This document shows positions 1 through 20,454 of a stretch of 64,000 bases of DNA, piece after piece. This stretch comes from an uncultured Actinomycetes bacterium (GTDB lineage: Bacteria > Actinomycetota > Thermoleophilia > UBA2241). The stretch's first letter is position 1. Each line of letters opens with the position of its first letter. The DNA lies in contig CAVWIH010000027.1 in NCBI GenBank assembly GCA_963755025.1, positions 23,068-87,067 of the forward strand, read 5' to 3'. A program made the position numbers and the translations under genes. Below the pieces are notes generated by a model. That model saw nothing but the letters and a program-made list of their open reading frames with translations. It was not told the origin of the DNA and did no database searches.

Positions 1-5
1 ATTCC

Positions 6-38
6 TTATTGGACAAATAACTGGTCGCTATTCAAGAT
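6..38 (+). promoter_or_regulatory. Putative hdr operon promoter with AT-rich palindromic operator
   Basis: TTATT-GGACA-AATAA inverted repeat at 6-20 overlaps TGGACA (10-15); CAAGAT follows after a 17-nt spacer (33-38). GGGGAG RBS precedes ATG 69. Confidence 0.4.
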
Positions 39-68
39 GACGTGACCGGCTTGGACGACTGGGGAGCC

Positions 69-1070
69 ATGGCGACGACCACACCTGATATCCCGGCGGT
101 GACGGGCGGCGTGCTGCTCTTTCGCAGCTGCCTGATCTCGACCGAATACCCGGGCTGCGAGGCGGCCACCAAGTGGCTCTTCGAGCGCTTCGGCATCGAG
201 TACGCCGTGCTGCCCGAACAGACCTGCTGCACCGGCTTGGGCTACTACTCGGAGATCGTGCCGGTGGCCACGTCGGTGGCTCTGGCCGCGCGCAACGCCT
301 GCGTCGCGGTCGAGAGCGGCCACCCCGTGATGAGCTACCTCTGCTCGACCTGCTACGCCATCAACAAGAAGGCGCGCAACATACTGGCGGTGCCCGAGTA
401 CCGCGCCGACACCAACCGCGTGCTCGCCGAGCTCGATCGCCAGTACACCGACGACGTCGCGGCCACCGTGCGCCACAGCCACACCATGGAGATCCTGTGG
501 AGCGCCCACGAGTCGATCCCCGGTCTCATCAGGCGGCGGCTCGACGGCATCAAGGTCGCCACCCACCCGGCCTGCCACTACTGCAAGGTCTTCCCCGACG
601 AGGTCGTGGGCGACAGCGAGAACTTCATGATCCCCGAGGACCTGCTCGAGGCCACCGGGGTCGTCAAGACCGGTCTCTACAACGAAAAGACGGGGCACTG
701 CGGGGCCGGCTTTCGCCAGCGCTTCGTGAACCCTTCGATCGCCATGGCGGTCACCCGCGAGAAGCTGCGCCGCCTCGCCCAGGAGAAGGTCGACGTGTGC
801 GTCCACATGTGCCCGAACTGCGCCATCCAGTTCGATCGCCACCACGACATCATCGAGGAGTCGTCGCACGAGACCTACCCCTTCGTGCACCTCCACGTGC
901 AGCAACTCCTGGCTCTCGCCTTGGGAGCCGACCCCGACAAGGACTGCGGCGTGGCCTCGCACTCCCAGGACATCGAGCCGCTGCTGGCGCGCATCGGCGC
1001 GCGCCGCAGGGTCGGCGTGACCCCCGCCGGCGACGCGGCCGGCCCGACTCCGGCCGGAGACCACCAGTGA
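69..1070 (+). CDS. hdrB: Heterodisulfide reductase subunit B (CCG domains)
   Basis: FRSC, QTCCTG, CSTC, HPACHYC, HCGAGFRQRF, MCPNC and QLLALALGAD motifs; RBS GGGGAG before ATG 69. Confidence 0.9.
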   Translation: MATTTPDIPAVTGGVLLFRSCLISTEYPGCEAATKWLFERFGIEYAVLPEQTCCTGLGYYSEIVPVATSVALAARNACVAVESGHPVMSYLCSTCYAINKKARNILAVPEYRADTNRVLAELDRQYTDDVAATVRHSHTMEILWSAHESIPGLIRRRLDGIKVATHPACHYCKVFPDEVVGDSENFMIPEDLLEATGVVKTGLYNEKTGHCGAGFRQRFVNPSIAMAVTREKLRRLAQEKVDVCVHMCPNCAIQFDRHHDIIEESSHETYPFVHLHVQQLLALALGADPDKDCGVASHSQDIEPLLARIGARRRVGVTPAGDAAGPTPAGDHQ

Positions 1071-4000
1071 GGGCCGGCGTCTTTCTGTGCCGGTGCGGCG
1101 GCAACATCTCGGGCGTGCTCGACCTCGAGGACCTCGCCGCCGGCGTGCGCAGCCTCGACGGCGTGGTCGCCGTCGACGTCAACCAGTTCATGTGCGGCAC
1201 CGAGGGTCGCGAGATCATCGCGAAGGCGGTCGAGGACCGCGGCCTCGACCACCTCGTGATCGCCTCATGCTCGCCGCGCTTTCAGGGGCCGACCTTCGAG
1301 CGCATCGCCCGCGAGCTGCGCCTCGGCGAGAACGCCGTCGCCTTCGCCAACATCCGCGAGGGCTGCTCGTTCATCCACGCCGCCGTTCCGGCGCTGGCCC
1401 AGGAGAAGGCCCGCAAGATCGTGCGCGCCGCCGTAGCCCGCGCCCACTGTCAGTCCGACCTGCCGCGCTCACGCACGTTCCTGCACCGCTCGGCGCTCGT
1501 GGTCGGCGGCGGCATCGCCGGCATGACGGCCGCCGAAGAGCTTGCCGGCGCCGGCATCGAGGTCCACCTGGTCGAGCAGTCGCCGAGCCTGGGCGGCTAC
1601 ATGGCGCGACTCTCCAAGACCTTTCCCACCGAGGACTGCGCCATGTGCTCACTGGCGCCGCGCCTGACCACCACCGCCCTCGAGTCGCGCGTGCACCTGC
1701 ACACGCTGACCGAGGTCGGCGAGATCTCGGGCCCGCCCGGCGAGTTTCGCGTGACGCTGCGCCACAAGCCGCGCTACGTCACCGAGGCCTGCGTGGGCTG
1801 CGGCGAGTGCGAGCCCGTGTGCCCGGTGAGCTACGGCAACGACTTCGATTTCGGCGTCGCCCAGCGGCGCGCCATCAACCGGCCCTTCGCCAACGCCGTG
1901 CCGGCCACGTTCCACGTAGAGCGCAAGGGCTGGTCGCCCTGTAAGAGCGCCTGCGCCGTGCACACCTCGGCTCAGGGCTACGTCGCCCTGGTCGCCGCCG
2001 GGCGCTTCGCCGAGGCCTATCGCGTGGCCGCCGAGCCCAACCCGTTTCCCAGCGTCTGCGGACGCATCTGCACGCGTCTGTGCGAGACCGCCTGCGCGCG
2101 CGGCGCCGTCGACCAGCCGGTCGCCATCGCCGCCCTCAAGCGCTTCGTGGCCGACGAGATCGGCCCCACGCTGCCGGTAGCGCCGGCCCCGGTCATCCAC
2201 GACGAGAAGGTCGCCGTGGTGGGCGGCGGGCCGGCCGGCCTGACCGCCGCCCGCGACCTCGCCGACCTGGGCTACGCCACCACCGTCTTCGAGGCCCAGC
2301 CGGTGGCCGGCGGCATGCTGCGCACCGGCATCCCCGACTACCGCCTGCCGGGCGCCACCATCCAGCGCGAGATCGACCAGATCCTCGCCCGGGGCGTCGA
2401 GCTGCGCTTGAACCAGCGCGCCGGCGCCGACTTCACGGTCGACGGGCTGCTCGCCGACGGCTTCAGCGCCGTCTACCTGGCCACCGGGCTGCAGCGGAGC
2501 GCCGCTGTCGAGATCCCCGGCGCCGAGCTCGACGGCGTGCAGGGGGCGGTCGAGCTGCTGCGCGCCGTCAACCTCGGCCGACCGGCGGCGGTGGGCGCCA
2601 GGGTCGTCGTGATCGGCGGCGGCGACGTCGCCCTCGACGCCGCCCGCAGCGCCATCCGACTGCAGGTGACCGCCGGGCGCGAGCCCGACGTCACGCTGGT
2701 TTACCGGCGCTCCAGGGTCGAGATGCCGGCCAACGCAAGCGAGGTCGACGAGGCCAAAGACGAGGGCCTCAAGGTCGAGTTCCTCGTGCAGCCGGTCGCG
2801 ATCTGCGGCAAGGACGGCGCGGTCGCCGGTCTCACGGCCGAGCGCTGCGCGCTCGCCGAGCCCGACGCTTCGGGCCGCCGCCGGCCGCTGCCCATCGCCG
2901 GCTCGCGGTTCGAGCTGGCGTGCGACACGGTGATCTTCGCCGTCGGCCAGGCCGTCGTGACCGACTTCCTCGACGGCTGCGCCGGCGTGCGCCTCGAGGA
3001 CGGCCAGGTGAAGACCGACCGCGACACCGGCATGACCGACCGCCCCGGCGTCTTCGCCGGCGGCGACGTGGCGGCCACCGGCCTGTTCACCGCCATCGAA
3101 GCGGTCGCCGCCGGCCGCCGCGCCGCCGCCGCCATCCACAACCACCTGCGCGGCGAGACGCTGCTGCCGGTCTGGCAGCAGGAGCAGGGCGCCGCTCGCC
3201 CGACGACCGAGGAGCTCGCCGCCGTCGCCGTGGGCCAGCGCGTGCCGATGGCGCTGGTCGACGGACTGCGCCGCCGCGCCGACTGGCACGAGATCTCGCC
3301 CGGCTACGACGCCGCAGGGGCCGTCGCAGAGGCCGCGCGCTGTCTGTCGTGCGCCGTCTGCGCCGACTGCGGCTCGTGCGTGCGCGCCTGTCCGTCGGGC
3401 GCCGTCGACCTGGACGACCGCGAGTGGCGTGAAGAGATCTCGGTGGGCGCCGTGATCGTGGCCACCGGCCATCAGGAGTTCGACGCCCGGCGCAAGCCGG
3501 CGCTCGGCTTCGGCCGCTTTCGCAACGTCCTGACCCAGAGCCAGCTGGCCCGCCTGCTGGCCGCGGCCGGACCGACCGAGGGCGAGGTTCGCCGGCCTTC
3601 CGACGGCGCCGCGCCGCGCAGGATCTTCATGCTGCAGTGCGTGGGTTCGCGCGACTGCCAGAGCAGCGGCAACGAGCATTGCTCGGCCGTCTGCTGCCTG
3701 TTCGCCACCCTGCACGCCTCGCTGCTCAAACAGCACTACCCCGACGCCGAGATCACCATCGCCTACACGGACATGCGCACCCCGGGCAAGGGGCACGAGG
3801 AGTACTACCGTCTCGTGCAGAGCCGCGGCGTGCGCTACGTGCGCGGCCGCATCGCCGAGCTCGTCGAAGAACCCGACGAGCGCCTGCGCGTGCGCCTCGA
3901 GGACACAGCGACCGGCGCCAAGCACGAGGAGCTGTTCGACCTGGTCGTGCTCTCGGCGGGCCTCGAGGCCTCGGACGGCACCCGGCAGATCGCCCGGGTG

Positions 4001-4420
4001 GCCGGCCTGCAGACGGGCGCGGCCGGCTTCATCAAGGAGTACCACCCCAAGCTCGCCCCCGTCGACACGCAGCGCGCCGGCATGTTCGTGTGCGGCACCG
4101 CGCAGGGGCCCAAGAACATCCCCGACTCGATCGCCCAGGCCAAGGCGGCGGCGGCGCGCGCGGTCGCCATGCTGTCCAGCGGCTTCGTGCTCACCCCGGC
4201 CCAGGTGGCTTCGTCGGACACGACCGTCTGCATAGGCTGCGGCGTCTGCGAAAGCTCGTGTCCGCAGGGCGCGGTGGCGCTCTCGGGCGCGGTCGCGCAC
4301 GCCGTGGTCGACGCCAACGTCTGCCGCGGCTGCGGCATCTGCGCCGCCGACTGCCCCTCGGGCGCCATGCAGCTGGGCGGCTTCAGCGACGCCGAGATCC
4401 TCGCCGAGGTGACGGTGTGA
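1067..4420 (+). CDS. hdrL: Large HdrA-family protein (HdrL type) with inserted GltD/SudA-like FAD/NAD(P)H module
   Basis: GTG start overlaps the hdrB stop (GTGA). GVFLCRCGGNI, NIREGCS, GGGIAG, KTFPTEDCAMC; GltD motifs NPFPSVCGRICTRLCE, GGGPAG, GGGDVALD, YRRSR; then QCVGSRD, CSAVCC, GPKNIPDS and a C-terminal 2x[4Fe-4S] domain. Confidence 0.9.
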   Translation: MRAGVFLCRCGGNISGVLDLEDLAAGVRSLDGVVAVDVNQFMCGTEGREIIAKAVEDRGLDHLVIASCSPRFQGPTFERIARELRLGENAVAFANIREGCSFIHAAVPALAQEKARKIVRAAVARAHCQSDLPRSRTFLHRSALVVGGGIAGMTAAEELAGAGIEVHLVEQSPSLGGYMARLSKTFPTEDCAMCSLAPRLTTTALESRVHLHTLTEVGEISGPPGEFRVTLRHKPRYVTEACVGCGECEPVCPVSYGNDFDFGVAQRRAINRPFANAVPATFHVERKGWSPCKSACAVHTSAQGYVALVAAGRFAEAYRVAAEPNPFPSVCGRICTRLCETACARGAVDQPVAIAALKRFVADEIGPTLPVAPAPVIHDEKVAVVGGGPAGLTAARDLADLGYATTVFEAQPVAGGMLRTGIPDYRLPGATIQREIDQILARGVELRLNQRAGADFTVDGLLADGFSAVYLATGLQRSAAVEIPGAELDGVQGAVELLRAVNLGRPAAVGARVVVIGGGDVALDAARSAIRLQVTAGREPDVTLVYRRSRVEMPANASEVDEAKDEGLKVEFLVQPVAICGKDGAVAGLTAERCALAEPDASGRRRPLPIAGSRFELACDTVIFAVGQAVVTDFLDGCAGVRLEDGQVKTDRDTGMTDRPGVFAGGDVAATGLFTAIEAVAAGRRAAAAIHNHLRGETLLPVWQQEQGAARPTTEELAAVAVGQRVPMALVDGLRRRADWHEISPGYDAAGAVAEAARCLSCAVCADCGSCVRACPSGAVDLDDREWREEISVGAVIVATGHQEFDARRKPALGFGRFRNVLTQSQLARLLAAAGPTEGEVRRPSDGAAPRRIFMLQCVGSRDCQSSGNEHCSAVCCLFATLHASLLKQHYPDAEITIAYTDMRTPGKGHEEYYRLVQSRGVRYVRGRIAELVEEPDERLRVRLEDTATGAKHEELFDLVVLSAGLEASDGTRQIARVAGLQTGAAGFIKEYHPKLAPVDTQRAGMFVCGTAQGPKNIPDSIAQAKAAAARAVAMLSSGFVLTPAQVASSDTTVCIGCGVCESSCPQGAVALSGAVAHAVVDANVCRGCGICAADCPSGAMQLGGFSDAEILAEVTV

Positions 4421-5004
4421 GTGTGGTGGCCGGGGTCGCCCGGGCGCTGCCGGGAGTGCACGCCGCGCCGGAGGCAAGCGAAGTGCCGAGCGCGGCCGCC
4501 GCGGAGGATGCGGCCCCGCGGGGTGCAGCCGTGCCGGGTGCCGCCGCGCCGGGTGCCGCCGCGCCGGGTGCCGCCGCCCTGGGTGCCGCCGCGCCGGGTG
4601 CGGAGCCGCGCCGCACCGTCGTCGCCTTCTGCTGTCGCGAGTGCGCTTACGCCGCGGCCGACGCCAGCGCCAACGCGCGCACGTCGCTGCCGCCGACCGT
4701 GCGCCTGGTGCTGCTGCCTTGCACGGGCCGGGTCTCGCCGCTGCACCTGCTCGAGGCGCTGGCCGGCGACGCCGACGGCGTCATGGTGGCGGGCTGCCTC
4801 GAGGGCCAGTGCCACTATCGCGAGGGCAACTTCAACGCCCTCGACCGCGTGCTGTTCGTGCAGCGCGTGCTGGCCTCGGTGGGCGTCGAACCCGAGCGCG
4901 CGCGCATGTTCACCATGAGCGCCGGCGAGCCGCCCAGGTTCGCGGCCGCCGTGCGCGAGATGGACCGCGCGATCGCCGCCCTGCCGCCCCTGCCGAGGTC
5001 GTGA
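4417..5004 (+). CDS. mvhD: MvhD/FlpD-type [2Fe-2S] subunit with Ala/Pro-rich N-terminal extension
   Basis: FCCRECAYAAAD, PCTGRV, GCLEGQCHYREGN, ERARMFTMSAGE; GTGA overlap with hdrL. Confidence 0.88.
   Translation: MSVVAGVARALPGVHAAPEASEVPSAAAAEDAAPRGAAVPGAAAPGAAAPGAAALGAAAPGAEPRRTVVAFCCRECAYAAADASANARTSLPPTVRLVLLPCTGRVSPLHLLEALAGDADGVMVAGCLEGQCHYREGNFNALDRVLFVQRVLASVGVEPERARMFTMSAGEPPRFAAAVREMDRAIAALPPLPRS
4521..4601 (+). repeat. 15-bp tandem repeat, about 5 copies (GAAAP)
   Basis: GGGTGCCGCCGCGCC-like units at 4521, 4536, 4551, 4566, 4581. Confidence 0.9.
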
Positions 5005-5006
5005 CG

Positions 5007-5423
5007 ATGCCGCTGAGCCACCGCGGCCGCGAGGTACTGGAGCGTCTGCCGCAGGCCGCCTTTGCCGGCGACAGCGCTCTGGGCTGCGAGATCGTGCGCC
5101 ACGACGAGCTCTGCGTGGGCTGCGGCAGGTGCGCCGCCGCCTGCCCGAGCGGGGCCAACACCCAGAGCGACCGTTTCGACGTGAACCAGCTTCTCGACGC
5201 CCCCCAGGGCAGCCGGCGCGGCGCCCTGGGCGCCGCCTTGCGGCGCCTGCAGCGCCGCGCCCCCGACGGCCCCGTGGCCGTGCCCGCGCGCGTCACGACC
5301 TATCGCACGATCGACTACGACGCCGCCGTCTGCCTGGGCTGCGGCGCCTGCGCCCGCGCCTGCCCGGCGCAGGCCATCGAGGCGCTGGCCCCGCGGGTCG
5401 CGCCGGTCGAGGTCGCGACGTGA
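5007..5423 (+). CDS. 2x[4Fe-4S] ferredoxin-like protein with long inter-cluster insert
   Basis: CVGCGRCAAACP and CLGCGACARACP; start is GTG 5001 or ATG 5007. Confidence 0.8.
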   Translation: MPLSHRGREVLERLPQAAFAGDSALGCEIVRHDELCVGCGRCAAACPSGANTQSDRFDVNQLLDAPQGSRRGALGAALRRLQRRAPDGPVAVPARVTTYRTIDYDAAVCLGCGACARACPAQAIEALAPRVAPVEVAT

Positions 5424-8002
5424 GCGGCGTCGAGGCCGCCACCGGCGCCACTGTGAGCGGCGCCGCCGCCGCGAGCGACGCGAACCTCGCCACGACGATC
5501 GCGCACGCCGCGAGCGGCGCCCGGCCGCTCGTGCTGCTCTGCGAGTGCGCCGGCACCATGGCCAACATCGACTTCGCGGCGCTCGAGACGCGCCTCGCCG
5601 CCCACGCCGACGTGCGGCGCGGCGCCCACTGGTGTGCGCGCGACGGCCAGGCGCGCCTGCTCGAGCTCCTCGAGGGCGACCCGCGGCGGCCGGTCTTCGC
5701 CGGCTGCTCGCGCGACTTCTCCGACCGCCGCTTCCAGCGCCTCGCGGCGCGCGGCCTGCGCCTCGAGACGGCCGACATCCGCGAGGGCTGCTCGTGGGTG
5801 CACGACGGCGACACGGCGGTCGTCACCGACAAGGCGGCCCGCATAGTCCTGGCGGCGATGGCCTACCCGAGCGCTTCGGCCGATACGCTGGCCCGTACGC
5901 ACAGGATCGACTCGGTCCTGGTGATCGGCGGCGGCGTGGCGGGCACACAGGCCGCCGTCGAGCTCGCCCAGATGGGTCACCGCGTCGACATGGTCGAGAG
6001 GCGCCCGTTCCTGGGCGGCCGCGCGGCCCGCATAGGCACAGTGTTCCCGACCAACGACTGCGGCCAGTGCCTGCCGACCACCGACGCCCAGGCGGGCACG
6101 CGCAAGTGCTTTCACCGCAACGTCGCCATCGACGACCCCAGCCTGCACATCTGGCGGCGCACCACCGTCGAGGCGGTCACCGGGCGCCCCGGCGAGTTCG
6201 AGGTCGCCCTCAAGCGCCTGCCGAACATCGTCACCGCCGAGTGCCTCAACTGCAGCACCTGCGAGACCGTCTGCCCGGAGCCGTCGAGCGACGGCGCGCA
6301 CAAGGCGATCTTCGCCGAGTTCTACGACGGCCGCGTGGTGCGCACCGTCGACCTCGACACGTGCACCTTCTGCGGCGCCTGCGCCAAGGACTGCCCCGTG
6401 CAGGCCATCGACTTCAGCCAGTCTCCGGAGCGCACCACCGTCAAGGCCGGGGCGGTGCTCACCGCCGTGGGCTGCGACCCTTCGCCGGCGGCGCTCATCG
6501 ACCACCTCGGCTACGGCCGCGACAACGTGGTCACGCAGACCGAGTTCGCCGAGATGATGGACGACTGGACCGCCATGGCGTCGGTGGGCCGCACGCCGGC
6601 TCGCGACGTCGTGATGGTGCAGTGCGCCGGCTCGCGCGACCGCCGCCGCCTGCCCTACTGCTCGCGCCTCTGCTGCATGATCGCCCTCAAGCACGCGACG
6701 CGGCTCAAGCGCCTCTTTCCCGAGATGAAGGTGACGATCTGCTACCTCGAGCTGCGCACGGCCGGCATCGGCTACGAGAACTGGTACCTCGAGGCGCGGC
6801 GCGCCGGCGTCGAGTTCCTGCGCGGCACGCCGCCCAGCGTGCAGTTCGACGAGCACGGCCGACCGGTGATCGAGGTCGAAGACATGACGGTGACCGAGAA
6901 GAAGACGTTGCGCCCCGACCTGGTCGTGCTCTCGCACGGCATGGTACCGGCGAAGGAGGTCGCGAGCCTGGCCGAGGTGCTGGGCATCGAGAGGAGCGAG
7001 GACGGCTTCGTCGAGATCCTCGACCGCAAGAACCGCGCCACCGAGACGACCCGCGAGGGCATCTTCGTGTGCGGCTCGGCGGCCGGTCCCAAGGCGCTCG
7101 TCGAGTGCAACACCGAGGCCTCGGCGGTGGCGGCCGAGATCCACAACTTCCTGGGCTCGGCCGGCCGCCGCATGTCGCCCGCCTCGACCGTGCGCGCGGC
7201 GGCCTGCGTGGGCTGCGACGTGTGCGAGTCGATGTGCCCCTTCGGCGCCATCAGCCGCGTCGAGCGCCCGGCCGGGGCGCCGCGCCCGGCCGAGGTCGAC
7301 GGCGACGGCAGACTGGCCGTCATCGACTCGGAGACCTGCCGTGCCTGCGGCATCTGCGCCGCCAACTGCCCGGAGATGGCGATCGAGCATCACCTCTCCG
7401 ACGACGACCTCACCGGCCGCCTGCGCCTGCTGGCGGGCGACGTCGAACGACCGGTGATCGGCTTCTACTGCAAGGAGTGCGCCGGCGCGGCGATCGCCCT
7501 GAGCGGGCTGCGCCACGACGCCTACCCCGCCAACGTCTGCCTGATCGAGCTGCCCTGCCTGGGCCGGGTGAGCGCCCTGCATATCGTCGAGGCGGCCCGC
7601 CTGGGCGCGGCCGGCGTCTTTTTGGCCGGCTGCGCCGAGGGCCGCTGCCAGTTTCGCGCAGGCGACACGAGCGCCGCCGCCCAGGCGGCGCTCGCCGACG
7701 AGTTGCTCACCGCCGCGGGGCTGGCCATGCCGCTCGAGCTCTGGCACCTGTGCGCCGTCGATCGCGGCACCGTCGGGCGCCGTATCCGCCTGTTCTGCGC
7801 ACGCGCCCAGGGCGACGAGGCCGCCGCCGCGATGCTCGTCTCCGAGACCCACCTCGTGGACCGGGCCACCGGCGCCGGCGACACCGCGGGCGACGCGCCG
7901 CGCGCACACGGCGCCGGTGACGAGGACTCTCCGCTGGGCGGGCGCCGCTCGCGCGGCGTCAGGGCGTCGCTTGCCGAAGGGGGTTGCCGTGACTGTCGCT
8001 GA
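5420..8002 (+). CDS. hdrA: HdrA-MvhD fusion (QmoB/HdrA-like architecture)
   Basis: LCECAGTM, DIREGCSWVH, GGGVAG, FPTNDCGQC, two ferredoxin domains, QCAGSRD, CSRLCCMIALKH; C-terminal MvhD motifs FYCKEC, PCLGRV, GCAEGRC. Confidence 0.88.
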   Translation: MSGVEAATGATVSGAAAASDANLATTIAHAASGARPLVLLCECAGTMANIDFAALETRLAAHADVRRGAHWCARDGQARLLELLEGDPRRPVFAGCSRDFSDRRFQRLAARGLRLETADIREGCSWVHDGDTAVVTDKAARIVLAAMAYPSASADTLARTHRIDSVLVIGGGVAGTQAAVELAQMGHRVDMVERRPFLGGRAARIGTVFPTNDCGQCLPTTDAQAGTRKCFHRNVAIDDPSLHIWRRTTVEAVTGRPGEFEVALKRLPNIVTAECLNCSTCETVCPEPSSDGAHKAIFAEFYDGRVVRTVDLDTCTFCGACAKDCPVQAIDFSQSPERTTVKAGAVLTAVGCDPSPAALIDHLGYGRDNVVTQTEFAEMMDDWTAMASVGRTPARDVVMVQCAGSRDRRRLPYCSRLCCMIALKHATRLKRLFPEMKVTICYLELRTAGIGYENWYLEARRAGVEFLRGTPPSVQFDEHGRPVIEVEDMTVTEKKTLRPDLVVLSHGMVPAKEVASLAEVLGIERSEDGFVEILDRKNRATETTREGIFVCGSAAGPKALVECNTEASAVAAEIHNFLGSAGRRMSPASTVRAAACVGCDVCESMCPFGAISRVERPAGAPRPAEVDGDGRLAVIDSETCRACGICAANCPEMAIEHHLSDDDLTGRLRLLAGDVERPVIGFYCKECAGAAIALSGLRHDAYPANVCLIELPCLGRVSALHIVEAARLGAAGVFLAGCAEGRCQFRAGDTSAAAQAALADELLTAAGLAMPLELWHLCAVDRGTVGRRIRLFCARAQGDEAAAAMLVSETHLVDRATGAGDTAGDAPRAHGAGDEDSPLGGRRSRGVRASLAEGGCRDCR

Positions 8003-9263
8003 ACCGGTGCGGGGCGCGGTCGCCGCCATCGCCGCCGACTACCGCATCTGCTACCAGTGCGGCCAGTGCACCGCCGCCTGCCCGAGCGGCGCCGACCTGC
8101 GGTCGGGGCCACGGCGCGTCATGCGCCTGCTGCTCGCCGAGCAGGCCGAGCAGCTCCTCGCCTGCGAGGACATCTGGCGCTGCACCGGCTGCGGCGCCTG
8201 CAGCGCCGCCTGCCCCATGGACCTTGACGTGGCCGAGGCGCTGGCCCGGGTGCGCGCGCTGGAGCGCGCGCACGGCGGCCAGCGCTGCCCCGAGCGCGGC
8301 GCCGCCTTGGTGGCCGCGCGGCGGCTCGCCGAGCACGACACGATCGACTCGCTGGCGTTCGGCACGGCCATGGCCGGCCGCGGCTACGTGCCGAGCGACC
8401 TCGTCGGCGCCGCGGGCGCCGCGGCGCGCCTGCTCCAGGGCCGGCTGCGGCGGACCGCGCATCCTCAGGCAGCCGGGCCCGCGACGGCCACGGCGGCGGC
8501 CGCGTCGCACGCGGCGGCCGCTTCCGAGTCGCTCGCCACAGGTTCGGCGGCGGGGTTCGCGGCGGCGGCTGCGGGGTTCGCGGCGGCGGCTGCGCCGCCG
8601 CTCCCCTTCTACCCGGGTTGCGCCCTCACCCAGGACGCGGCGGCCCACGCCCTCACGCGCGCCGCGGCCGCCGGCCTTGGTCTGGAGCTCAGCGAGACAA
8701 GCGGCGCGCCCTGCTGCGGGCACCCCAGCCGCGGCGCGGCCGCGCCGGGCGCGATGGGCGACGAGACGCTCGTCACCGCCTGTCCGGCCTGCGACCGGAG
8801 CCTGCGCGAGGCCGGCATCCCGACGACGCCCCTCTGGGAGGCGCTCGTCGACCGCACGTTGCGCGGCGGTCGCGACCTGCGAGCGGCCGGCGCGGCCTTC
8901 GTGCCCTACGTCGGTTGCCTCGCCGAGCGCGACCGCGCCCTCGACACGCTGGCCGGCGCGGCCGCCCTTGCCCAAGTCGACTGCCTGACCTCGTACCCGG
9001 CGCTGCACAGCGGCTGCTGCGGCGCCCTGGGCGGCATGTACCGCGGCGAGACGCAGGCGGTGCGGCGGTTGCTCGACTACGCCGCCGAACGCGACGCCGC
9101 CGTGGTCACCACCTGCCTGCTATGCCGCGACAACCTGCGTTCGTCCGCCCGCCGGCGCCGGCTGCCGGTCCAGGTCCAGTTCTGGCCCGAGTTCTTCAGC
9201 GCCGCCGGCCCCGCCGCCGACGCCGGACCCACCAACTTCACCGATGGAGGCGCCCATGACTGA
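7989..9263 (+). CDS. Compact HdrC-HdrB (HdrD-like) fusion: 4Fe-4S dicluster plus two CCG domains
   Basis: CYQCGQCTAACP, IWRCTGCGACSAACP, then FYPGC/CCG/CPAC and YVGC/CCG/CLLC. Confidence 0.8.
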   Translation: MTVAEPVRGAVAAIAADYRICYQCGQCTAACPSGADLRSGPRRVMRLLLAEQAEQLLACEDIWRCTGCGACSAACPMDLDVAEALARVRALERAHGGQRCPERGAALVAARRLAEHDTIDSLAFGTAMAGRGYVPSDLVGAAGAAARLLQGRLRRTAHPQAAGPATATAAAASHAAAASESLATGSAAGFAAAAAGFAAAAAPPLPFYPGCALTQDAAAHALTRAAAAGLGLELSETSGAPCCGHPSRGAAAPGAMGDETLVTACPACDRSLREAGIPTTPLWEALVDRTLRGGRDLRAAGAAFVPYVGCLAERDRALDTLAGAAALAQVDCLTSYPALHSGCCGALGGMYRGETQAVRRLLDYAAERDAAVVTTCLLCRDNLRSSARRRRLPVQVQFWPEFFSAAGPAADAGPTNFTDGGAHD

Positions 9264-9978
9264 GCGCGACGAGCGCCCGACCGCCGTGCCCGACGCCGGG
9301 GCCGGCGTGCCCAGCGCCGAGGCCGCCGTGCCCGTACGGGTGAACCCTTACGCCGTGATCGCCCCCGGCGAGTTCCACCGGCGGCCCGAGGCCCGCCTCG
9401 ACCTGGTCGAGCGCATCGTGAACGACCCCCGCATGCACGACCACAAAGAGGGCTTTCTCTCCTGCCTGCAGTGCGGCGTGTGCACCTCGGGCTGCCCGGC
9501 GGCGCGCTTTGCCGACTATTCGCCGCGCCAGGTGGCGCGGCGCGCCTACGAGGGCGACCCCTCGCTGCTCGAAGACGACTCGGTGTGGTTCTGCTTCTAC
9601 TGCTACACCTGCCAGAGCCGCTGTCCGCGCAAGAACAGCGTGGCGGTGATCAACCAGGTGATCCGCTCCATGCAGGTCGAGAGCGGCTACGGCATCAAGC
9701 ACGTCGAGATGTTCGCGGCCTGGGGCGAGCAGTTCTACGACAAGGGCATGGGCGGCACGCCGCACGTCTTCTTCAGCGACATCGCCGAGGCTTGGGGGCC
9801 GAAGTGGCAGGCCTTCATCGCCGGCCGCGACGCGCTGCGCGAGGAGCTCGGCGTGGGCGACATGTACCCGTCGGCGGCGACCGTGGCCGAGGTACGCGCC
9901 GTCATGAGGGCGACCGGCTTCAAGGCGCGCCTCGAGAGCCTGGGCGCCTGGGGCGGCCGGCGGCCCGACGAGGATTGA
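9256..9978 (+). CDS. hdrC: Heterodisulfide reductase subunit C
   Basis: CLQCGVCTSGCP, YSPRQV, WFCFYCYTCQSRCP; GGAGG RBS at 9246-9250. Confidence 0.9.
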   Translation: MTERDERPTAVPDAGAGVPSAEAAVPVRVNPYAVIAPGEFHRRPEARLDLVERIVNDPRMHDHKEGFLSCLQCGVCTSGCPAARFADYSPRQVARRAYEGDPSLLEDDSVWFCFYCYTCQSRCPRKNSVAVINQVIRSMQVESGYGIKHVEMFAAWGEQFYDKGMGGTPHVFFSDIAEAWGPKWQAFIAGRDALREELGVGDMYPSAATVAEVRAVMRATGFKARLESLGAWGGRRPDED

Positions 9979-10260
9979 CCCCACCGTCGGTTGCGTGCCG
10001 CGGATGGCCGTGTGGAGCGCATGACCTTTCCTGAAGAGGCCTCACGTCGCACGCTTTGGCCTTTTCCAAGTGGCTGACTCACCCCGAGACGCTCGGATGC
10101 CAATCCACGCCACAGGGCGATCCTTGGGGGTAAGGCGATGCGCAGCCTGTTCCACGTCGTCGGCACGAGTGCGATGCTCCGCCTGTCGTTCGGTGTCGTG
10201 ATGGGGTGTGGTCGGTACCCAGCCGCCCGCGACCAGTCGGCCGCGCCATAGGCGCGCGCC

Positions 10261-10269
10261 TGCTAGAAT
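10261..10269 (+). promoter_or_regulatory. Extended -10 element upstream of nadA
   Basis: TGcTAGAAT about 65 nt before the nadA ATG. Confidence 0.5.
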
Positions 10270-10335
10270 CTGTACAGCCCTGCCGGTGCGGTGGCGCCGG
10301 CGCCTGTCTCGCCGACGCTCAAGGACGGCTGCCCG

Positions 10336-11247
10336 ATGACCGACTTCTCCGACTCCCAGCAGGAGCTTCGCGACCTGGCCGCCGCGCGCGACGCCATCAT
10401 CCTGGCGCACAACTACCAGCGCCCCGAAGTGCAGGACGCGGCCGACCTGGTGGGCGACTCGCTGGAGCTCGCCCGCAAGGCGGCGGCCACCGACGCCGCG
10501 GTGATCCTCTTCTGCGGCGTGCACTTCATGGCTGAGACGGCCAAGATCCTCTCGCCCGCCAAGACCGTGCTCATGCCCGATCCCCACGCCGGCTGCCCGA
10601 TGGCCGACATGGTGACGGTCGAAGGCCTGCGCGCCTTGAAGGCGCAGCACCCCGACGCCGCCGTGGTCGCCTACGTCAACACGAGCGCCGAGATCAAGGC
10701 CGAGGTCGACGTCTGCTGCACCAGCGCCAACGCCCCCGAGATCGTGGCCCGCATCCCCGCCGAGCAGCCCATCATCTTCGTGCCCGACCGCAACCTGGGC
10801 GACTGGGTCGCCGGACGCACCGGGCGCACGAACATGATCATGTGGCAAGGCTACTGCCCCGTGCACGAGCAGATGACCGCCGACGAGGTGAGCGCCGCCC
10901 TCGCCGCACACCCAGGGGCCGAGCTCATGGCGCACCCCGAGTGCGGTCGCGAGGTGCGCGCCCTGGCCACGGTGATCACGAGCACCTCGGGCATGCTGCG
11001 CTACCCGGCCACGAGCGCCGCCCGCGTGTTCGTGGTGGCCACCGAGACGGGCCTGCTGCACCGCCTGCGCGGACTCTACCCCGACCGTGAGTTCCTGCCG
11101 GCCGCGCGCGGCGCGATCTGCCCCAACATGAAGCGCACCACCCTCGACAAGGCGATCGCCGCCTTGGACGAGGGCCTGAACGAGATCGTGGTGCCGCCGC
11201 GCATCGCCGAACGCGCCCTCGCGTCGGTCGAGCGCATGATGGCCTGA
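10336..11247 (+). CDS. nadA: Quinolinate synthase A
   Basis: LAHNYQRPEVQ, GDSLEL, FCGVHFMAETAKIL, AGCPMADM, YVNTSA, CPVH, AHPEC, CPNMK. Confidence 0.95.
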   Translation: MTDFSDSQQELRDLAAARDAIILAHNYQRPEVQDAADLVGDSLELARKAAATDAAVILFCGVHFMAETAKILSPAKTVLMPDPHAGCPMADMVTVEGLRALKAQHPDAAVVAYVNTSAEIKAEVDVCCTSANAPEIVARIPAEQPIIFVPDRNLGDWVAGRTGRTNMIMWQGYCPVHEQMTADEVSAALAAHPGAELMAHPECGREVRALATVITSTSGMLRYPATSAARVFVVATETGLLHRLRGLYPDREFLPAARGAICPNMKRTTLDKAIAALDEGLNEIVVPPRIAERALASVERMMA

Positions 11248-11319
11248 GCGCCCGTCCGGGCGCGTGAGTTCCCCGGTCTAGCAGCGCCGCGCGCCGGGAA
11301 AGCCTACCGGCAGAGCATC

Positions 11320-11778
11320 ATGCCACCTGGCAAGCACAACTCCAGCGACAAGCCCGACCGCGGCAACAGCAGCGACCGCGCGCGCGACTCCGCCCGAGAC
11401 CCCACGCGCGACTCCGCCCGAGACCCCGGCCGCGAACGCCCGCACGATCCCGCCCGCGAACGCCCGCACGATCCCGCCCGCGACCCGGACGCCGGCGAGC
11501 ACTACGAAGTCGTGACGGTCGAGCACCTGCTGGCGCCGGGCGCCCCCAGCCTCCCCACGCCGCCTGCCGGCCACGCCCGGTACGCCTACGTGCTGGAGGG
11601 TCAGGTGACCGCGCGGATCGGCGCCGAGACGCTGATCGCCGGACCCGGCAGCATCGTCTCGCTGCCCGCGAGCTTCCGTCACTCGCTCGCCTGCGCCGGC
11701 GACACGACGGCCCGCGTGCTCGTCGTGCACGTGCGCGAGACGGAGCGGGAAGATCCGGCGGAGCGCCGCGCCGCGTAG
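11320..11778 (+). CDS. Cupin-domain protein with repetitive charged N-terminus
   Basis: YVLEGQV...AGPGSIVSLPASFRHS cupin pattern; 24-bp periodic repeats at about 11377-11490. Confidence 0.65.
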   Translation: MPPGKHNSSDKPDRGNSSDRARDSARDPTRDSARDPGRERPHDPARERPHDPARDPDAGEHYEVVTVEHLLAPGAPSLPTPPAGHARYAYVLEGQVTARIGAETLIAGPGSIVSLPASFRHSLACAGDTTARVLVVHVRETEREDPAERRAA

Positions 11779-11867
11779 CGCACGCGGCGTCGCGCGGTGC
11801 GATGGGCGAACCGCGCCCCCGACCGCGCCGCCCCACCGTCGCGCCGCGTAGCGCACGCGGCTGACGC

Positions 11868-12974
11868 CTACGTCGCGTCGTCGGCCACCTGCAGCACCGC
11901 CGCGCCGCGGATGCCGTCGTGCTTGAGAGCGATCAACGCCTCGTTGGCCTGGTCGAGCGGGAACACCTGGATCTCGGTGACGATGGGGATGGCCGCCGCC
12001 AGGCGCAGCAACTCGGCGGCGTCGCGCCGCGTCGAGTTGGTCACGCTGCGAATGACGCGCTCCCCATAGAGCAATGGGTATTCGAACGCCGGCACCGGCG
12101 ACGAGTAGATGCCGCCCATGGCGACCGTGCCGCCCTTGTCGAGCACCTTGAGGGCCTCGATGGCGAGCTCGCCGACCGGCGCGAAGACGATGGCCGCATC
12201 GAGCTTGACGGCGGCGTCGCCGCCGGGCTGCTCGTCGGCCGCGCCCGCCCACACGGCGCCGAGCTCGAGGGCCAGGCGCCGGTGCTTCTCGTCGCGGGTG
12301 AAAGCGTAGACCTCGGCGCCCCAGTAGCGCGCGATCTGCAGACAGATGTGGGCGGCGGCCCCGAAGCCGTACAGCCCCAGGCGCCGGCCGGCGGCCGCTC
12401 CTGGGCCGGCCGGGGTCGCGACGCCCGCGCCCGAGCCGGCGGCACCCGCCGTCGCGCCGGCGCCGGCTCCCGCCGGCACGAGGCCCGACAGGTGCAGCGA
12501 GCGATAGCCGATGATGCCGGCGCACAGCAGCGGCGCCGCCGCCAGATCGCTCAGCCTCTCGTGCAGCGGGTAGCTGAAGGCAGCCGGCGCCACGGTGAGC
12601 TCGGCGAAGCCGCCGTCGACGTCCCAGCCCGTGAACTGGGCGGCGTCGCACAGGTTCTCGTCGCCGCGCCGGCAGTAGCGGCAAGTGCCGTCGGTGGAGT
12701 GCAGCCAGGGCACGCCGACGCGGTCGCCGACGCGGTGCTCGGTCACACCCTCGCCGAGCTCGACGACGCGGCCCACGATCTGGTGACCGGGCACGACCGG
12801 AGACTTGTGCGGCGGCAGCTCGCCCTCGGCGACGTGCAGGTCGGTGTGACAGACGCCGCAGGCGCTCACAGCGATCAGGATCTCGCCGGCGCCGGGGTGC
12901 GGCCGGGGGAGCTCGACGAGCTCCAGGGGCCGCTCGTCGATCGGCTTGGGCTGACGCAGCAGCATGGCTCTCAT
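11868..12974 (-). CDS. Zinc-dependent alcohol dehydrogenase
   Basis: CGVCHTDLH, PGHQIVG, CRYCRRGDENLC, APLLCAGIIGY, GLYGFGAAA. Confidence 0.92.
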   Translation of the reverse strand: MRAMLLRQPKPIDERPLELVELPRPHPGAGEILIAVSACGVCHTDLHVAEGELPPHKSPVVPGHQIVGRVVELGEGVTEHRVGDRVGVPWLHSTDGTCRYCRRGDENLCDAAQFTGWDVDGGFAELTVAPAAFSYPLHERLSDLAAAPLLCAGIIGYRSLHLSGLVPAGAGAGATAGAAGSGAGVATPAGPGAAAGRRLGLYGFGAAAHICLQIARYWGAEVYAFTRDEKHRRLALELGAVWAGAADEQPGGDAAVKLDAAIVFAPVGELAIEALKVLDKGGTVAMGGIYSSPVPAFEYPLLYGERVIRSVTNSTRRDAAELLRLAAAIPIVTEIQVFPLDQANEALIALKHDGIRGAAVLQVADDAT

Positions 12975-13018
12975 GGCGGCCTCCGCGAGTGGTTGCCCGA
13001 AATCATACCCGCGCGGCG

Positions 13019-13456
13019 CTAGGTCACCGTGCGTGAGCCGGGCTCAGGCACGACCGCGACGCAACTGATCTCGACCAGCGCCTCGGGCACGATGAGCTCG
13101 GTCACCCCGACGGCCGTCCAGGCCGGCAGCGGCTCGTCGAAGATCTCCGCGGCGACCTGCAGGAGCGCGGCAAGCTGGCGCTGCAGCCCCACGTGATACG
13201 AGGTCAGGCTGACCACGTGCGGCCAACCGACCCCAGCCGCGGCCAGGGTCTCGCCGAGGTTGGCGAAGGTGCCGCGGATCTGCTCCTCGACGCCCGCCGG
13301 AAAGACGCCGTCCGCCCCTTCCCCGGTGTGGCCCGTGACCTGCACCGTGTCGCCGGCCCGGATCGCCGCCGGCACGCGCGTCTCTTCGTAGAAGTCAGAC
13401 CAATGCGAGGGCACCACGGCGACGCGACCGGCCGGCGTGTTCCTGCCTTCTGCCAT
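13019..13456 (-). CDS. RidA/YjgF family protein, non-Arg subfamily
   Basis: TGHTG, EQIRGTFANLGETLAAAG, PAWTAVGVTEL, VEI; Trp at the position of the catalytic Arg. Confidence 0.85.
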   Translation of the reverse strand: MAEGRNTPAGRVAVVPSHWSDFYEETRVPAAIRAGDTVQVTGHTGEGADGVFPAGVEEQIRGTFANLGETLAAAGVGWPHVVSLTSYHVGLQRQLAALLQVAAEIFDEPLPAWTAVGVTELIVPEALVEISCVAVVPEPGSRTVT

Positions 13457-13480
13457 GTGCGCTCCTTTCCTAGGGTTCGC

Positions 13481-14291
13481 CTAGCTCAGCACGTCCTTGC
13501 GCCCGAACACGGCGACCGCGGCGAGCAGCGCCACGCCTACCGTCGCCCCGTAGCTCTCGAGCGCCTGCCTGACAGGTTGCCAGTAGATCGGATAACGGAA
13601 CAGGTTGACGAAGGCGAGGCGGTAGCTCGAATACGTGTAAGGCTTCAGGAAGTCGAACACGCTGAAGGCGTTCAGGATGGTCAGCACGGTGAAGACGGCG
13701 ATGGCGATGATCGCCGCCGTGAGGCTCGAGTCGGTGAGCGTCGAGATGAACAGGGCGATGGTCAGCGAGCAGACCGCGCCCGCGACCACCAGCAGGTAGG
13801 CCACGCCGATCAAGGCCGAGCGCGTGCGATGTGCCGATCGTCGTGCCCGACAGGGTGACCAGCGGGCGCAGGCCGAAGGCCGCGGCGCCCGCCGCCAGCG
13901 CCACCACGGCCACCAGGGCGGCCCCGGCCAGCGCGTAGAGCACGGCCACGGCCCACTTGGTGAGGAGCACGCCCGTGCGGCTCACTGGACGCGACAGCCA
14001 GGTCTTGAGCGTGCCCGTCTCGGCCTCGCTGGCCACCGACGAGGCGCCGCCCATAGCGGCGACGATGGGCAGCAGGAACGAAGCCAGCGCGATCAGCGCC
14101 GAGAGCATCACGAGCAAGCCGTTCTGGGCGACGTGCGCCACGAACGGCGGCTCGCCGGGGTCCTGCGGGCGCGGCGTCTGCAGCGCCCCCGCGGCGACCA
14201 CGATGAGCGGCACGGCCACGAGCCCCGTCCAGCCCAGGTAGGTGCGCTTCTGGTGGGCGACCTTGATGGCCTCGAGGCGAAGCGATGTCAT
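13481..14291 (-). CDS. ABC transporter permease (paralog 2), frameshifted near 13814
   Basis: EAETGTLKTWLSRPVSRT motif; joining ORFs 14291-13815 and 13813-13481 gives a full-length paralog of the upstream permease. Confidence 0.8.
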
Positions 14292-19084: not shown

Positions 19085-20454
19085 ATGAAACGCCGACGCG
19101 ACAAGGCCCGGGACAGGCGCGACCGTCAGGCACACGACGCGGCGCCTCGCACCGGCGCAGCGCCTCGTACCGGCGCGGCGACTCGTACCGGCGCGCGACT
19201 GGTACCGGCGCGCGACTCGTAACGACGCGGCTTCCGGTAGCGCGCCCGGGGGCGCGCCGGTGCGCTACCGCTCGCGGCCGGTGAAGGCTTCGGGCCGCGT
19301 GGTGGCCATGGTGGCGGCGCTCGTCGCGCTCACCGTCGTGGCGGCCATCGCGCTGGCGACGGCGTTCTCGCCGAGGGGCGGGGGCGGCTCCGCCGCCCGC
19401 CCCCGTCGCTTCGAGCACCGCCGGGCTCGCGTCGAGCGCTTCGTCGACGCGCGTCCCTTCGAGCCCCGGAGCGTCGCCCAGGGCGGCGTCGCACGCCGGC
19501 GTGACGGTCGTCTCGGGCGGCGACACGATGGGCGACCGGGGCGTCAAGTCGTACATCGCGGCGCACGGCCCCGACGCGGTCTTCGCCGGTATCGCACCCG
19601 TCCTGCGGGCGGCCGACGCGTCCTGGGTCAACCTCGAGTCGCCGCTCACCACGATCAGCGACCCCTACCCCGGCAAAGACGTGCACTTTCAGGGCGACCC
19701 GCGCCTGGCCGCCGGCCTCGCCTTCGCCGGCGTCGACGTCGTGAACATGGCCAACAACCACGCCGTCGACCAGGGGCCGGCCGGCCTAGTCGACTCCATC
19801 CGCACGGTCGAGGCCGCCGGCATCAAGGTGGTCGGCGCGGGCAGGAACGCGAGCGCCGCCCGGCGGCCGGCCATCGTGCGGGCGAGCAACGGCGCGACCA
19901 TCGGCTTTCTCGGCTGGACCGACATCATCTGGCCCGGCTTTGCCGCCGGCAGCGGCCCCGGGGTGGCCACGGGGGTCACCGACATGAGTCAGGTGACGCA
20001 GGCCATCCGCGCGCTCAAGCGACGCGTCGACTACGTCGTCGTCTGCTTTCACTGGGGTATCGAATACACCGACACGCCGCTCGCCTCTCAGGTCTCCGAG
20101 GCGCACGCGGCGATCGATGCCGGCGCCGACCTGGTCATCGGCCACCACCCACACGTGCTGCAGGGCGTGCAGCTCTACAAGGGCCACGTCATCATCTACA
20201 GCCTGGGCGACCTGGTCTTCGATCACTACAGCCTGGCCACCGGCCAGACGGTGCTCGTCTCCGCCGCACTCTCGCCGCACGGGGTCAGCGCGACCCTCAT
20301 TCCCGTCTACGCGTCGTCGGACGGCATCCCGGCAATCGTTACGGGCGCCGCCGGACGTGCCATACTGCACCACATGCAGCAGATCTCAGCACCCTTGGGC
20401 GCCCACCTGAAGATCGTCGGCGATCGCGCCTACGTGCGCTCGTCGGGCGCGTGA
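19085..20454 (+). CDS. CapA/PGA_cap family metallophosphoesterase-fold protein, with 5' frameshifts
   Basis: GDTM, VNLESP, ANNHAVDQG, FHWGIEY, GHHPHVLQ, YSLGD. TM anchor lies in another frame (19260-19400); indels at about 19190-19215 and about 19398. Confidence 0.8.

Follow-up and report, generated by a model that had tools for sequence, protein, structure and literature searches.

What does a non-methanogenic actinobacterium do with an operon that encodes every module of a heterodisulfide reductase (Hdr) twice? We address this question for the seven plus-strand genes at positions 69-9978 of a 64,000-nt stretch of DNA (hereafter the window; contig C27, 23068-87067, of metagenome-assembled genome (MAG) G000). 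The host MAG comprises 3.37 Mb in 39 contigs, is 84% complete and 5% contaminated, and has a G+C content of 71%. It is a Thermoleophilia MAG, and its sequence relatives carry the names of Thermoleophilia or Actinomycetota MAGs from palsa, bog, fen, peat and soil, which bears out the description of the host as a non-methanogenic actinobacterium in an earlier note on this DNA.

Hdr-type enzymes are among the few known engines of flavin-based electron bifurcation. The HdrABC of methanogens reduces the heterodisulfide of coenzymes M and B (CoM-S-S-CoB) and is fed by the hydrogenase MvhAG or by FdhAB; it is an obligate dimer in which one HdrA contributes Cys197 to complete the N-terminal cluster on the other, and its HdrB holds a pair of noncubane [4Fe-4S] clusters, bound by two copies of the CCG motif (C...CC...CxxC). 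For FlxABCD-HdrABC, found in Desulfovibrio and other anaerobes, the proposed role is to link the oxidation of NADH, through HdrABC and the MvhD-like FlxD, to the reduction of ferredoxin and of a disulfide (DsrC). The sulfur-oxidising sHdr clusters (hdrC1B1A-hyp-hdrC2B2) have a single HdrA without MvhD, two HdrC, two HdrB, and lipoate-binding protein genes nearby. Other CCG-domain proteins, including LutA, GlcF, SdhE/TfrB and EtfD, act on non-disulfide substrates. To our knowledge, the Hdr-type enzymes studied biochemically are the methanogen versions and one Methanosarcina variant only.

A seven-gene operon carries each Hdr module in two architectures

Our analysis of the window reveals that the seven-gene operon is real: adjacent genes abut or overlap by 4-20 nt, and each has a third-codon-position G+C content (GC3) of 0.94-0.95. 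Genes were called from lists of open reading frames (ORFs) and with a GC3 gene caller, which served to pick genes among the many spurious ORFs of this G+C-rich DNA, and domains were assigned with Pfam and NCBIfam. The products comprise two HdrA-type, two MvhD, two HdrC-type and two HdrB-type modules, together with a ferredoxin. In particular, hdrB (69-1070) has two Pfam CCG domains and matches the HdrB model NF041780 over its full length (326 bits); hdrL (1067-4420), a type III HdrA gene, matches HdrA at residues 1-285 and 764-1115 and has Fer4_20 and Pyr_redox_2 domains at residues 283-760; mvhD (4417-5004) encodes a free MvhD/FlpD [2Fe-2S] subunit (Pfam FlpD, 138 bits, residues 68-189); and fdx (5001-5423) encodes a 140-residue ferredoxin (Pfam Fer4 families) with an insert of ~55 residues between its two [4Fe-4S] motifs. 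They are followed by hdrA-mvhD (5420-8002), encoding an 860-residue fusion of type Ia (HdrA2-like; NF040770, the HdrA2 model, 462 bits) with FlpD at residues 679-769; hdrCB (8007-9263, alternative start 7917), encoding a soluble, HdrD-like fusion of an HdrC-type dicluster domain and two CCG motifs, with an Ala-rich linker; and hdrC (9244-9978), encoding a full-length HdrC-type subunit (NF041890, 200 bits, positions 7-190 of 192). Sequence comparison finds a complete set of cluster and flavin adenine dinucleotide (FAD) motifs across all seven products, which between them have more than 20 predicted Fe-S clusters, three flavin sites and two MvhD modules.

The start of mvhD is uncertain and may lie as far downstream as 4531, where the GC3 caller places it; orthologues align only from residues 35-67 on. 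The 5′ part of the gene (window 4417-4620) encodes ~65 residues of Ala/Pro-rich low-complexity sequence with PGAAA-like repeats, absent from orthologues.

Pfam reveals no hydrogenase, Flx or Fdh domains in the operon or its flanks, and the operon contains neither FlxA-type domains (FAD_binding_6, NAD_binding_1 or DHODB Fe-S) nor ferredoxin-like genes of the flxB or flxC kind. The earlier note had described seven overlapping or abutting genes that supply each module twice in different architectures, plus a ferredoxin, a description that is correct in every particular.

The gene order is conserved across several phyla

In a species-level survey, one genome per GTDB species was scanned with an HdrL alignment, and the best 80 of 203 relatives were analysed. 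The identical seven-gene order is present in 59 of the 80 loci; in the other 21, the sequence ends at most 405 nt from the last gene, and what remains is a contiguous run of the same order. Apart from loci cut by a sequence end, none of the 80 carries only one half of the cassette, and fdx holds the same place wherever the locus extends far enough. The loci include Acidimicrobiales, Candidatus Dormibacteria, Candidatus Binatia and one "Deltaproteobacteria" MAG, with HdrL identities of 62-67%. The arrangement is conserved far beyond chance. Loss of the gene order, the outcome that the earlier note had named as fatal to its proposal, was not seen in any locus as far as its sequence runs.

A family-level comparison covered 24 other genomes of the same family and 16 genomes of six sister families. 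An HdrA-MvhD orthologue with 69-92% identity is present in 20 of the 24, and in genome G021 the orthologue is reduced to pieces that are 49-81% identical; in the 16 sister-family genomes no orthologue was found, only paralogues with 33-36% identity. The cassette was recovered in 18 of 20 regions taken from relatives: it is complete in 15, runs off a contig end in 2 and is fragmented in 1; the remaining 2 regions are paralogue matches without it. In G021, which is 51% complete, the cassette at 3800-13600 of locus L029 is in the right order but split into many short frames, reflecting either pseudogenisation or poor assembly. A search for HdrB homologues returned matches that are all at least 69% identical, with one orthologue cluster labelled Thermoguttaceae, and did not reach Methanosarcina HdrB2.

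Only one of the two HdrA-type proteins keeps the flavin-N5 lysine

HdrL and HdrA-MvhD both align across the HdrA domains to solved HdrA chains with their Cys motifs kept (540-556 bits to methanogen HdrA chains for the HdrA part of HdrL, and 305 bits to solved HdrA chains for HdrA-MvhD). The HdrL insert, residues 283-760, sits between the two CxxCxxCxxxCP motifs of the inserted ferredoxin domain and matches Thermotoga maritima NfnB (4ylf_B) with 296 bits. Both Rossmann motifs are kept, and the equivalent of NfnB Arg187, R426 in GIPDYRLP, is invariant in 13 of 13 aligned HdrL sequences, so that the GltD/NfnB-type NAD(P)H insert claimed previously is real. The NfnB-like module most resembles transhydrogenase subunits of the Nfn and Stn types (9n5u, 8oh5, 4ylf). 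With mvhD directly 3′ of it, the gene has the features of an hdrL/type III HdrA.

The two proteins differ at the HdrA flavin. Two residues at the flavin N5, Lys409 and Glu356, have been proposed as markers of a bifurcating HdrA (PMC12054007; PMC6405883). In an ungapped HdrL alignment anchored on both sides, the Lys409 column (motif CCLFATLHA) contains Leu in 62, Val in 5 and Ala in 1 of 69 sequences, with 1 unmatched. The equivalent position of HdrA-MvhD (motif CCMIALKHA) is Lys in 56 of 59 sequences, the exceptions being two HdrL fragments and one aberrant sequence. The equivalents of Glu354 and Glu356 are Q and A/S in HdrL (63 of 69 matched); in HdrA-MvhD, the same columns contain E/D and then A/S/T, with an acidic residue one position later. 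HdrL thus has neither member of the marker pair, and HdrA-MvhD alone has it in part. Judged by the published criterion, the HdrA-type flavin of HdrL looks non-bifurcating; that of HdrA-MvhD, a protein that also retains a free inserted ferredoxin domain, looks like a bifurcating flavin or close to one. The lysine is kept in other HdrA paralogues of the host genome, including two more with an NfnB insertion; one paralogue has His.

The two CCG heads differ in their cluster ligands

HdrB aligns over its full length (residues 17-309) to the solved HdrB chain 5odc_B (136 bits). Its first CCG motif is canonical, and its second is a variant, PACHYC ... GHCGAG, in which His occupies the position of Cys193 of 5ODC and a new Cys lies three residues after the Cys153 equivalent, giving five Cys in a changed geometry. 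The variant is kept in 56-57 of 60 orthologues. Among the 119 full-length representatives of the 50%-identity clusters nearest HdrB, it occurs in two (P0121, 70% identity; P0123, 39% identity); more than 100 have the canonical Cys-Cys, and a few incomplete or partly aligned entries also have His.

HdrCB is 47-67% identical among orthologues, as compared with 70-92% for HdrB, and its eight ferredoxin-type and ten CCG-motif Cys do not vary in any of the 48 orthologues compared. The AlphaFold2 model of HdrCB (predicted local distance difference test 85, predicted template-modelling score 0.82) has as its best PDB folds Mycobacterium smegmatis EtfD (9ojn; template-modelling (TM) score 0.52), followed by HdrB, LutA and HdrC; a sequence search of the CCG part against the PDB gave no HdrB match. 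HdrC retains its eight cluster Cys in 56-58 of 58 orthologues; its best NCBIfam model is the Methanobacteria-type HdrC (NF041890), and the second is the ferredoxin:CoB-CoM HdrC model. The best models for the other proteins are the HdrA2 model for HdrA-MvhD and the ferredoxin:CoB-CoM HdrB model for HdrB. In a three-chain prediction of HdrB, HdrCB and HdrC, with HdrC as partner, a control in which chain 2 was replaced reached an equally high score, and the prediction counts neither for nor against such an assembly.

Both heads look functional but chemically different, judging from their residues. They differ in active-site ligands and may act on different sulfur substrates. The earlier proposal of two different heads, a free HdrB plus HdrC and an HdrC-B fusion, stands as a matter of gene content, with disulfide reduction as a predicted activity.

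Hydrogenase and ferredoxin genes lie upstream of the cassette in some loci, and hydrogenase and Flx genes elsewhere in the host

Twelve of the 80 loci are of a Dormibacteria type, in which hoxH and a HoxW protease gene are among the same-strand genes directly 5′ of the cassette (12 of 12). The 11 loci that reach far enough carry pfor, a DHOD-like gene, a small ferredoxin gene, hoxE, hoxF, hoxU, hoxY, hoxH and the HoxW protease gene, and the twelfth stops at a contig end. HoxW was identified in 10 of these 11 loci, and 8 of the 12 have hypA. The pfor-hox context is found in none of the other 68 loci. Between the hox genes and hdrB lies a gap of ~500 nt that contains a conserved palindrome, and co-transcription of hox genes and cassette is not implied. 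This context sets the cassette among genes for NAD(H), ferredoxin and H2. The earlier view of a stand-alone operon with no hydrogenase, Flx or Fdh is accordingly true of the operon in the present lineage but does not extend to the Dormibacteria-type loci, all 12 of which lie behind hoxEFUYH and pfor.

The host genome encodes several other Hdr-type systems. On contig C16 (locus L111, 700-7700), an hdrC-hdrB-hdrA-mvhD cluster precedes two ferredoxin-like genes and a gene for a FlxA-like FAD/NAD-binding protein; from its gene content, this is a predicted Hdr-Flx cluster of classical arrangement (hdrCBA-flxDCBA-like) on a separate contig. Two more HdrL-type loci are present: that on C14 (L112, 6600-13050) has the order mvhD, NfnB-inserted hdrA, hdrA, 99-residue ORF, hdrC, CCG protein gene, and that on C20 (L010, 5400-12500) has NfnB-inserted hdrA, hdrA and mvhD, with hdrC and hdrB ~2 kb further on past two plus-strand ORFs. 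Contig C30 (L113, 6195-14900) encodes an 857-residue GltD-like/HdrC/CCG fusion with DUF7479, beside a molybdoenzyme of the xanthine-dehydrogenase type; near this fusion lies a molybdopterin oxidoreductase gene with an in-frame TGA, probably encoding a selenocysteine formate dehydrogenase. The genome also has four [FeFe]-hydrogenase matches on C37 and a pyruvate:ferredoxin oxidoreductase (PFOR), so that the host has a ferredoxin pool.

No [NiFe]-hydrogenase and no CODH/ACS (acetyl-CoA synthase) was matched in the 84%-complete host genome; genes for methylene-THF reductase (MetF) and for lipoate-binding proteins are absent in and beside the operon, no genome-wide search having been made. [NiFe] matches occur in 33 of the 40 other genomes, several of them next to another HdrA paralogue, in genomes where the cassette is present as well, which indicates that the cassette is not simply an Hdr that lost its hydrogenase. 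DsrC was considered as the substrate and rejected: the sole PF04358 match in the genome (C26, 30170-30467) is split over two frames and has a single C-terminal Cys, and is thus TusE-like. The genome check that the earlier note had called for therefore gave a mixed picture, with hdrCBA-flxDCBA, [FeFe]-hydrogenases and an Fdh-like TGA-containing gene elsewhere in the genome but neither [NiFe]-hydrogenase nor two-cysteine DsrC.

Proposed electron path and alternatives

Because its genes overlap, its interior has no detected promoter or plus-strand terminator-like site, and its order is conserved, we consider the operon as one unit. The reading that we favour, with confidence about evenly balanced between acceptance and doubt, is that its products form one soluble complex in which NAD(P)H would be oxidised at the NfnB-like FAD of HdrL, electrons would be relayed via Fe-S clusters to the FAD of HdrA-MvhD, and the electron pair would be split there between a disulfide-reducing CCG head and ferredoxin. 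The cofactor sites are read from the protein sequences; the order of transfer, the heterodimer and the direction are inferred. Specifically, oxidation of NAD(P)H at the NfnB-like FAD spliced into HdrL would be followed by transfer through the HdrL clusters, both MvhD-type [2Fe-2S] modules and the small 2x[4Fe-4S] ferredoxin. Electrons would then arrive at the FAD of HdrA-MvhD, the likely bifurcating site because it is the only HdrA-type flavin of the operon to keep the N5 lysine; one electron would pass to a CCG-cluster head that reduces a disulfide, and the other would reach a low-potential ferredoxin by way of the free inserted ferredoxin domain. HdrL would serve mainly as a donor module in place of MvhAG. 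Overall, 2 NAD(P)H, oxidised ferredoxin and R-S-S-R' would yield 2 NAD(P)+, reduced ferredoxin and 2 thiols, and the reaction may run in reverse. By analogy with the obligate HdrA dimer of methanogens, HdrL and HdrA-MvhD probably form a heterodimer.

Several points weigh against this proposal. Compared with 5odc_A, both HdrL and HdrA-MvhD have the N-terminal cluster domain and, in a DCxxC motif, the Cys197 equivalent, so that sequence alone forces no heterodimer. Complementary loss of these elements, as in the tandem HdrA of anaerobic methanotrophic archaea (ANME), was sought and not found, both proteins keeping both. Of the earlier idea of two unequal halves, the flavin asymmetry (Lys kept only in HdrA-MvhD, Leu in HdrL) therefore stands, and the ANME-type complementarity used to argue for a heterodimer is absent. 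The Glu356 position of HdrA-MvhD is Ala/Ser, so that even this protein does not fit the published two-residue criterion cleanly. The NfnB-type flavin could itself be a candidate bifurcating site, which would alter the electron path. No two-cysteine DsrC was found and no thiol substrate was identified in the host genome, whose 84% completeness makes all genome-wide absences provisional. We know of no biochemistry on HdrL-type complexes and of none that has been purified. Finally, HdrA2B2C2 of Methanosarcina acetivorans is described as heterotrimeric, without a partner HdrA (PMC12054007).

The same residues that leave the heterodimer unforced would allow each HdrA-type protein to homodimerise, and the operon could then encode two separate, co-regulated enzymes, an HdrA2B2C2-like one of HdrA-MvhD, HdrB and HdrC and an NAD(P)H-linked one of HdrL, MvhD, ferredoxin and HdrCB, each acting alone or as a homodimer. 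HdrA-MvhD and HdrB have HdrA2-subclass NCBIfam models as their best matches, and HdrC has one as its second-best, in line with such a division, as does the reported ability of HdrA2B2C2 to work without a second HdrA (PMC5296606; PMC12054007). We nevertheless consider two enzymes unlikely: their genes would be interleaved, with hdrB first, hdrC last, and hdrL, mvhD and fdx between, in an order kept across four phyla; half-cassettes are missing from the survey, sequence ends aside; and the fact that only HdrL has lost Lys409 suggests divided roles. Taking the lack of both marker residues in HdrL together with the lack of Glu at the exact 356 position in HdrA-MvhD, and with the occurrence of the cassette in Dormibacteria and Acidimicrobiia, which are mostly aerobic or facultative, one might instead propose an NAD(P)H:disulfide (or persulfide/polysulfide) reductase that does not bifurcate and is not coupled to ferredoxin, with a role in thiol homeostasis or in sulfur handling. 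This seems improbable to us, given that three flavins, two MvhD modules and more than 20 predicted Fe-S clusters exceed the needs of a simple reductase, that HdrA-MvhD keeps both Lys409 and the free inserted ferredoxin domain, and that the Dormibacteria context is one of ferredoxin and hydrogen metabolism.

The direction of electron flow is unreadable from the sequence, and no thiol-generating partner is encoded nearby; both points count against confurcation, in which reduced ferredoxin (from PFOR) and a thiol or other mid-potential donor would together reduce NAD(P)+, the complex serving as an Nfn-like redox balancer. The kinship of the NfnB-like module to Nfn- and Stn-type subunits and the PFOR and ferredoxin genes 5′ of the cassette in 11 of 12 Dormibacteria-type loci would suit confurcation, which has also been suggested for HdrABC/HdrL of Syntrophobacter fumaroxidans (PMC5947623); on balance we hold it to be highly improbable. 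Action of one or both CCG heads on a non-disulfide, such as an organic acid or a quinone-like acceptor, appears more improbable still. The fold of HdrCB, nearest to EtfD with LutA also matching, the lack of an HdrB match for its CCG part in the PDB sequence search, and the unusual ligand set of the second HdrB motif point in that direction, but HdrB matches solved HdrB chains and the HdrB NCBIfam model over its full length, HdrCB keeps all ten CCG Cys, and no organic-acid pathway gene is conserved beside the cassette.

A bolder form of the favoured single-complex reading, which we judge distinctly unlikely, is a three-flavin, two-stage machine: the degenerate HdrA flavin and the NfnB-type flavin of HdrL would form an NAD(P)H entry stage, wired via two MvhD modules and the ferredoxin into a true bifurcating HdrA, and the two CCG heads would serve two sulfur substrates, of which one would be a thiol cofactor or carrier new to soil Actinomycetota, Dormibacterota and Binatota. 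If this form were true, the cassette would be a major unnoticed route by which bacteria of peat and soil make low-potential ferredoxin from NAD(P)H or H2.

Relation to known systems

Enzymes of this general kind have already been predicted from genomes. HdrL was defined in Desulfobacterium autotrophicum HRM2 as a heterodisulfide reductase/glutamate synthase fusion followed by mvhD (PMC2702500), and S. fumaroxidans Sfum_0819-0824 encodes HdrABC beside an Fe-S protein, MvhD and HdrL, with HdrABC/HdrL protein detected only with sulfate and confurcation suggested by the authors (PMC5947623). Chadwick et al. described an ANME-1 HdrA with a 500-residue NfnB-like insertion in the inserted ferredoxin domain, and tandem HdrA heterodimers were proposed for ANME from the complementary presence of the N-terminal domain and Cys197 (PMC9012536). 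Yan et al. delineated the HdrA-MvhD fusion subclass HdrA2B2C2 and predicted NADH-using bacterial homologues (PMC5296606). A 2025 survey named types Ia and III HdrA and reported K409 and E356 as conserved in all archaeal type III proteins (PMC12054007). The novelty implied by the earlier note was consequently too strong, since HdrL + HdrABC clusters, NfnB-inserted HdrA and heterodimeric HdrA are in print (PMC2702500, PMC5947623, PMC9012536, PMC12054007). A published account of the seven-gene cassette was not found in the open literature, a search whose scope left subscription journals mostly outside and did not cover supplements. New here are the loss of the flavin-N5 lysine in HdrL with its retention in HdrA-MvhD, the Cys-to-His variant of HdrB, and the pfor-fdx-hoxEFUYH context.

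The closest arrangements are the HdrL loci of S. fumaroxidans and D. autotrophicum, which, like the operon, have HdrL followed by MvhD and an Fe-S protein, beside HdrA/B/C, and no catalytic hydrogenase subunit. The operon differs in adding an HdrC-HdrB fusion, in fusing HdrA to MvhD, and in placing hdrB first and hdrC last; its hosts, moreover, are not sulfate reducers, and a two-cysteine DsrC is missing from the host genome as assembled. With MvhAGD-HdrABC (5ODC), the operon shares the HdrA, HdrB, HdrC and MvhD folds and nearly all cluster ligands. It differs in having an NAD(P)H module rather than MvhAG, two different HdrA proteins rather than a homodimer, no Lys409 in HdrL, and His for the Cys193 equivalent in HdrB, and CoM-S-S-CoB is an unlikely substrate.

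The type III HdrA of ANME-1 (HdrA9-11) likewise have an NfnB-like module interrupting the inserted ferredoxin domain, and the proposed heterodimeric tandem HdrA of ANME are likewise encoded by two adjacent, unequal genes; however, archaeal type III proteins are reported all to keep K409 and E356, neither of which is present in the operon HdrL, and the ANME tandem pairs show complementary N-terminal/Cys197 loss, whereas both operon proteins keep both elements. HdrA2B2C2 of M. acetivorans shares the C-terminal fusion of HdrA to MvhD together with HdrB and HdrC, and provides the best NCBIfam subclass for HdrA-MvhD and HdrB, but F420H2 is not expected in the operon system, and HdrL, MvhD, ferredoxin and HdrCB have no counterpart there. 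In contrast to FlxABCD-HdrABC, the operon lacks genes of the FlxA/B/C type, the Hdr-Flx cluster of the host being that on C16; and in contrast to sHdr, it has two HdrA-type genes, two MvhD modules and a different gene order.

The cassette would represent a compact, self-contained, NAD(P)H-driven version of Hdr. It is conserved unchanged across several phyla, in many uncultured bacteria of peat and soil, and may commonly serve them to balance NAD(P)H, ferredoxin and H2 under anoxic conditions. Being naturally asymmetric, with one HdrA flavin with the N5 lysine and one without, and with two different CCG heads, it provides a built-in experiment on the bifurcating flavin, and its thiol substrate bears on the sulfur and redox biochemistry of abundant soil lineages. 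The general idea is already in print; the cassette is valuable as a well-defined target more than as a new principle.

Regulation and expression

A putative promoter/operator on the plus strand at 5-38 of the window is inferred from conservation alone. Within this region, which is AT-rich in a genome of 71% G+C, an imperfect 17-nt palindrome (5-21) overlaps a −35-like TTGGAC (9-14), and a −10-like CAAGAT is present at 33-38. Thermoleophilia loci carry kindred AT-rich elements 5′ of hdrB, with CTTAT...ATAAG half-sites and −35/−10-like hexamers. A generic promoter scan found no promoter, neither at the upstream element nor inside the operon. A terminator scan of the operon found no plus-strand site and one terminator-like match, on the minus strand inside hdrL (shuffle mean 2.3). 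The palindrome was pursued as the mark of a regulon and dropped: allowing up to 3 mismatches, the 17-mer occurs only once in the 3.37-Mb assembly, at the operon's own site, and so provides no functional context.

Dormibacteria-type loci (L076-L084, L087, L108 and L109) have a perfect palindrome, TTCTCT-3 nt-AGAGAA, ~160 nt 5′ of hdrB, between hoxW/hypA and hdrB, which suggests that the cassette has its own regulated promoter there. A small minus-strand ORF (19424-19618 of locus L009), ~450 nt 5′ of hdrB and outside the window, has a CxxC...CxxC zinc-ribbon-like motif and a conserved C-terminal EGYRP and was seen upstream of the cassette in 24 loci. It was considered as a candidate regulator; it has no Pfam match, and its distance to the cassette varies between loci.

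In one wetland metatranscriptome run, contigs at least 90% alike cover 30 of 30 bins of window positions 1-10400; 31 of the 283 contigs are at least 99% alike, most come from relatives, and this coverage is not proof of transcription.

Flanking genes and other features of the window

The operon flanks are unrelated to Hdr function. The upstream flank contains hemE-like and amine-oxidase-like genes, divergently transcribed, and the small Cys4 ORF; the downstream flank has a 313-nt gap followed by nadA, and a cupin gene is also located downstream. Further into the window, a tRNA gene lies on the minus strand at 46745-46818. A few kb past it, the ~14 kb at 50000-64000 have a lower G+C content (62-69%, as compared with 70-76%) and few genes by the GC3 caller, and this segment may be an acquired island.

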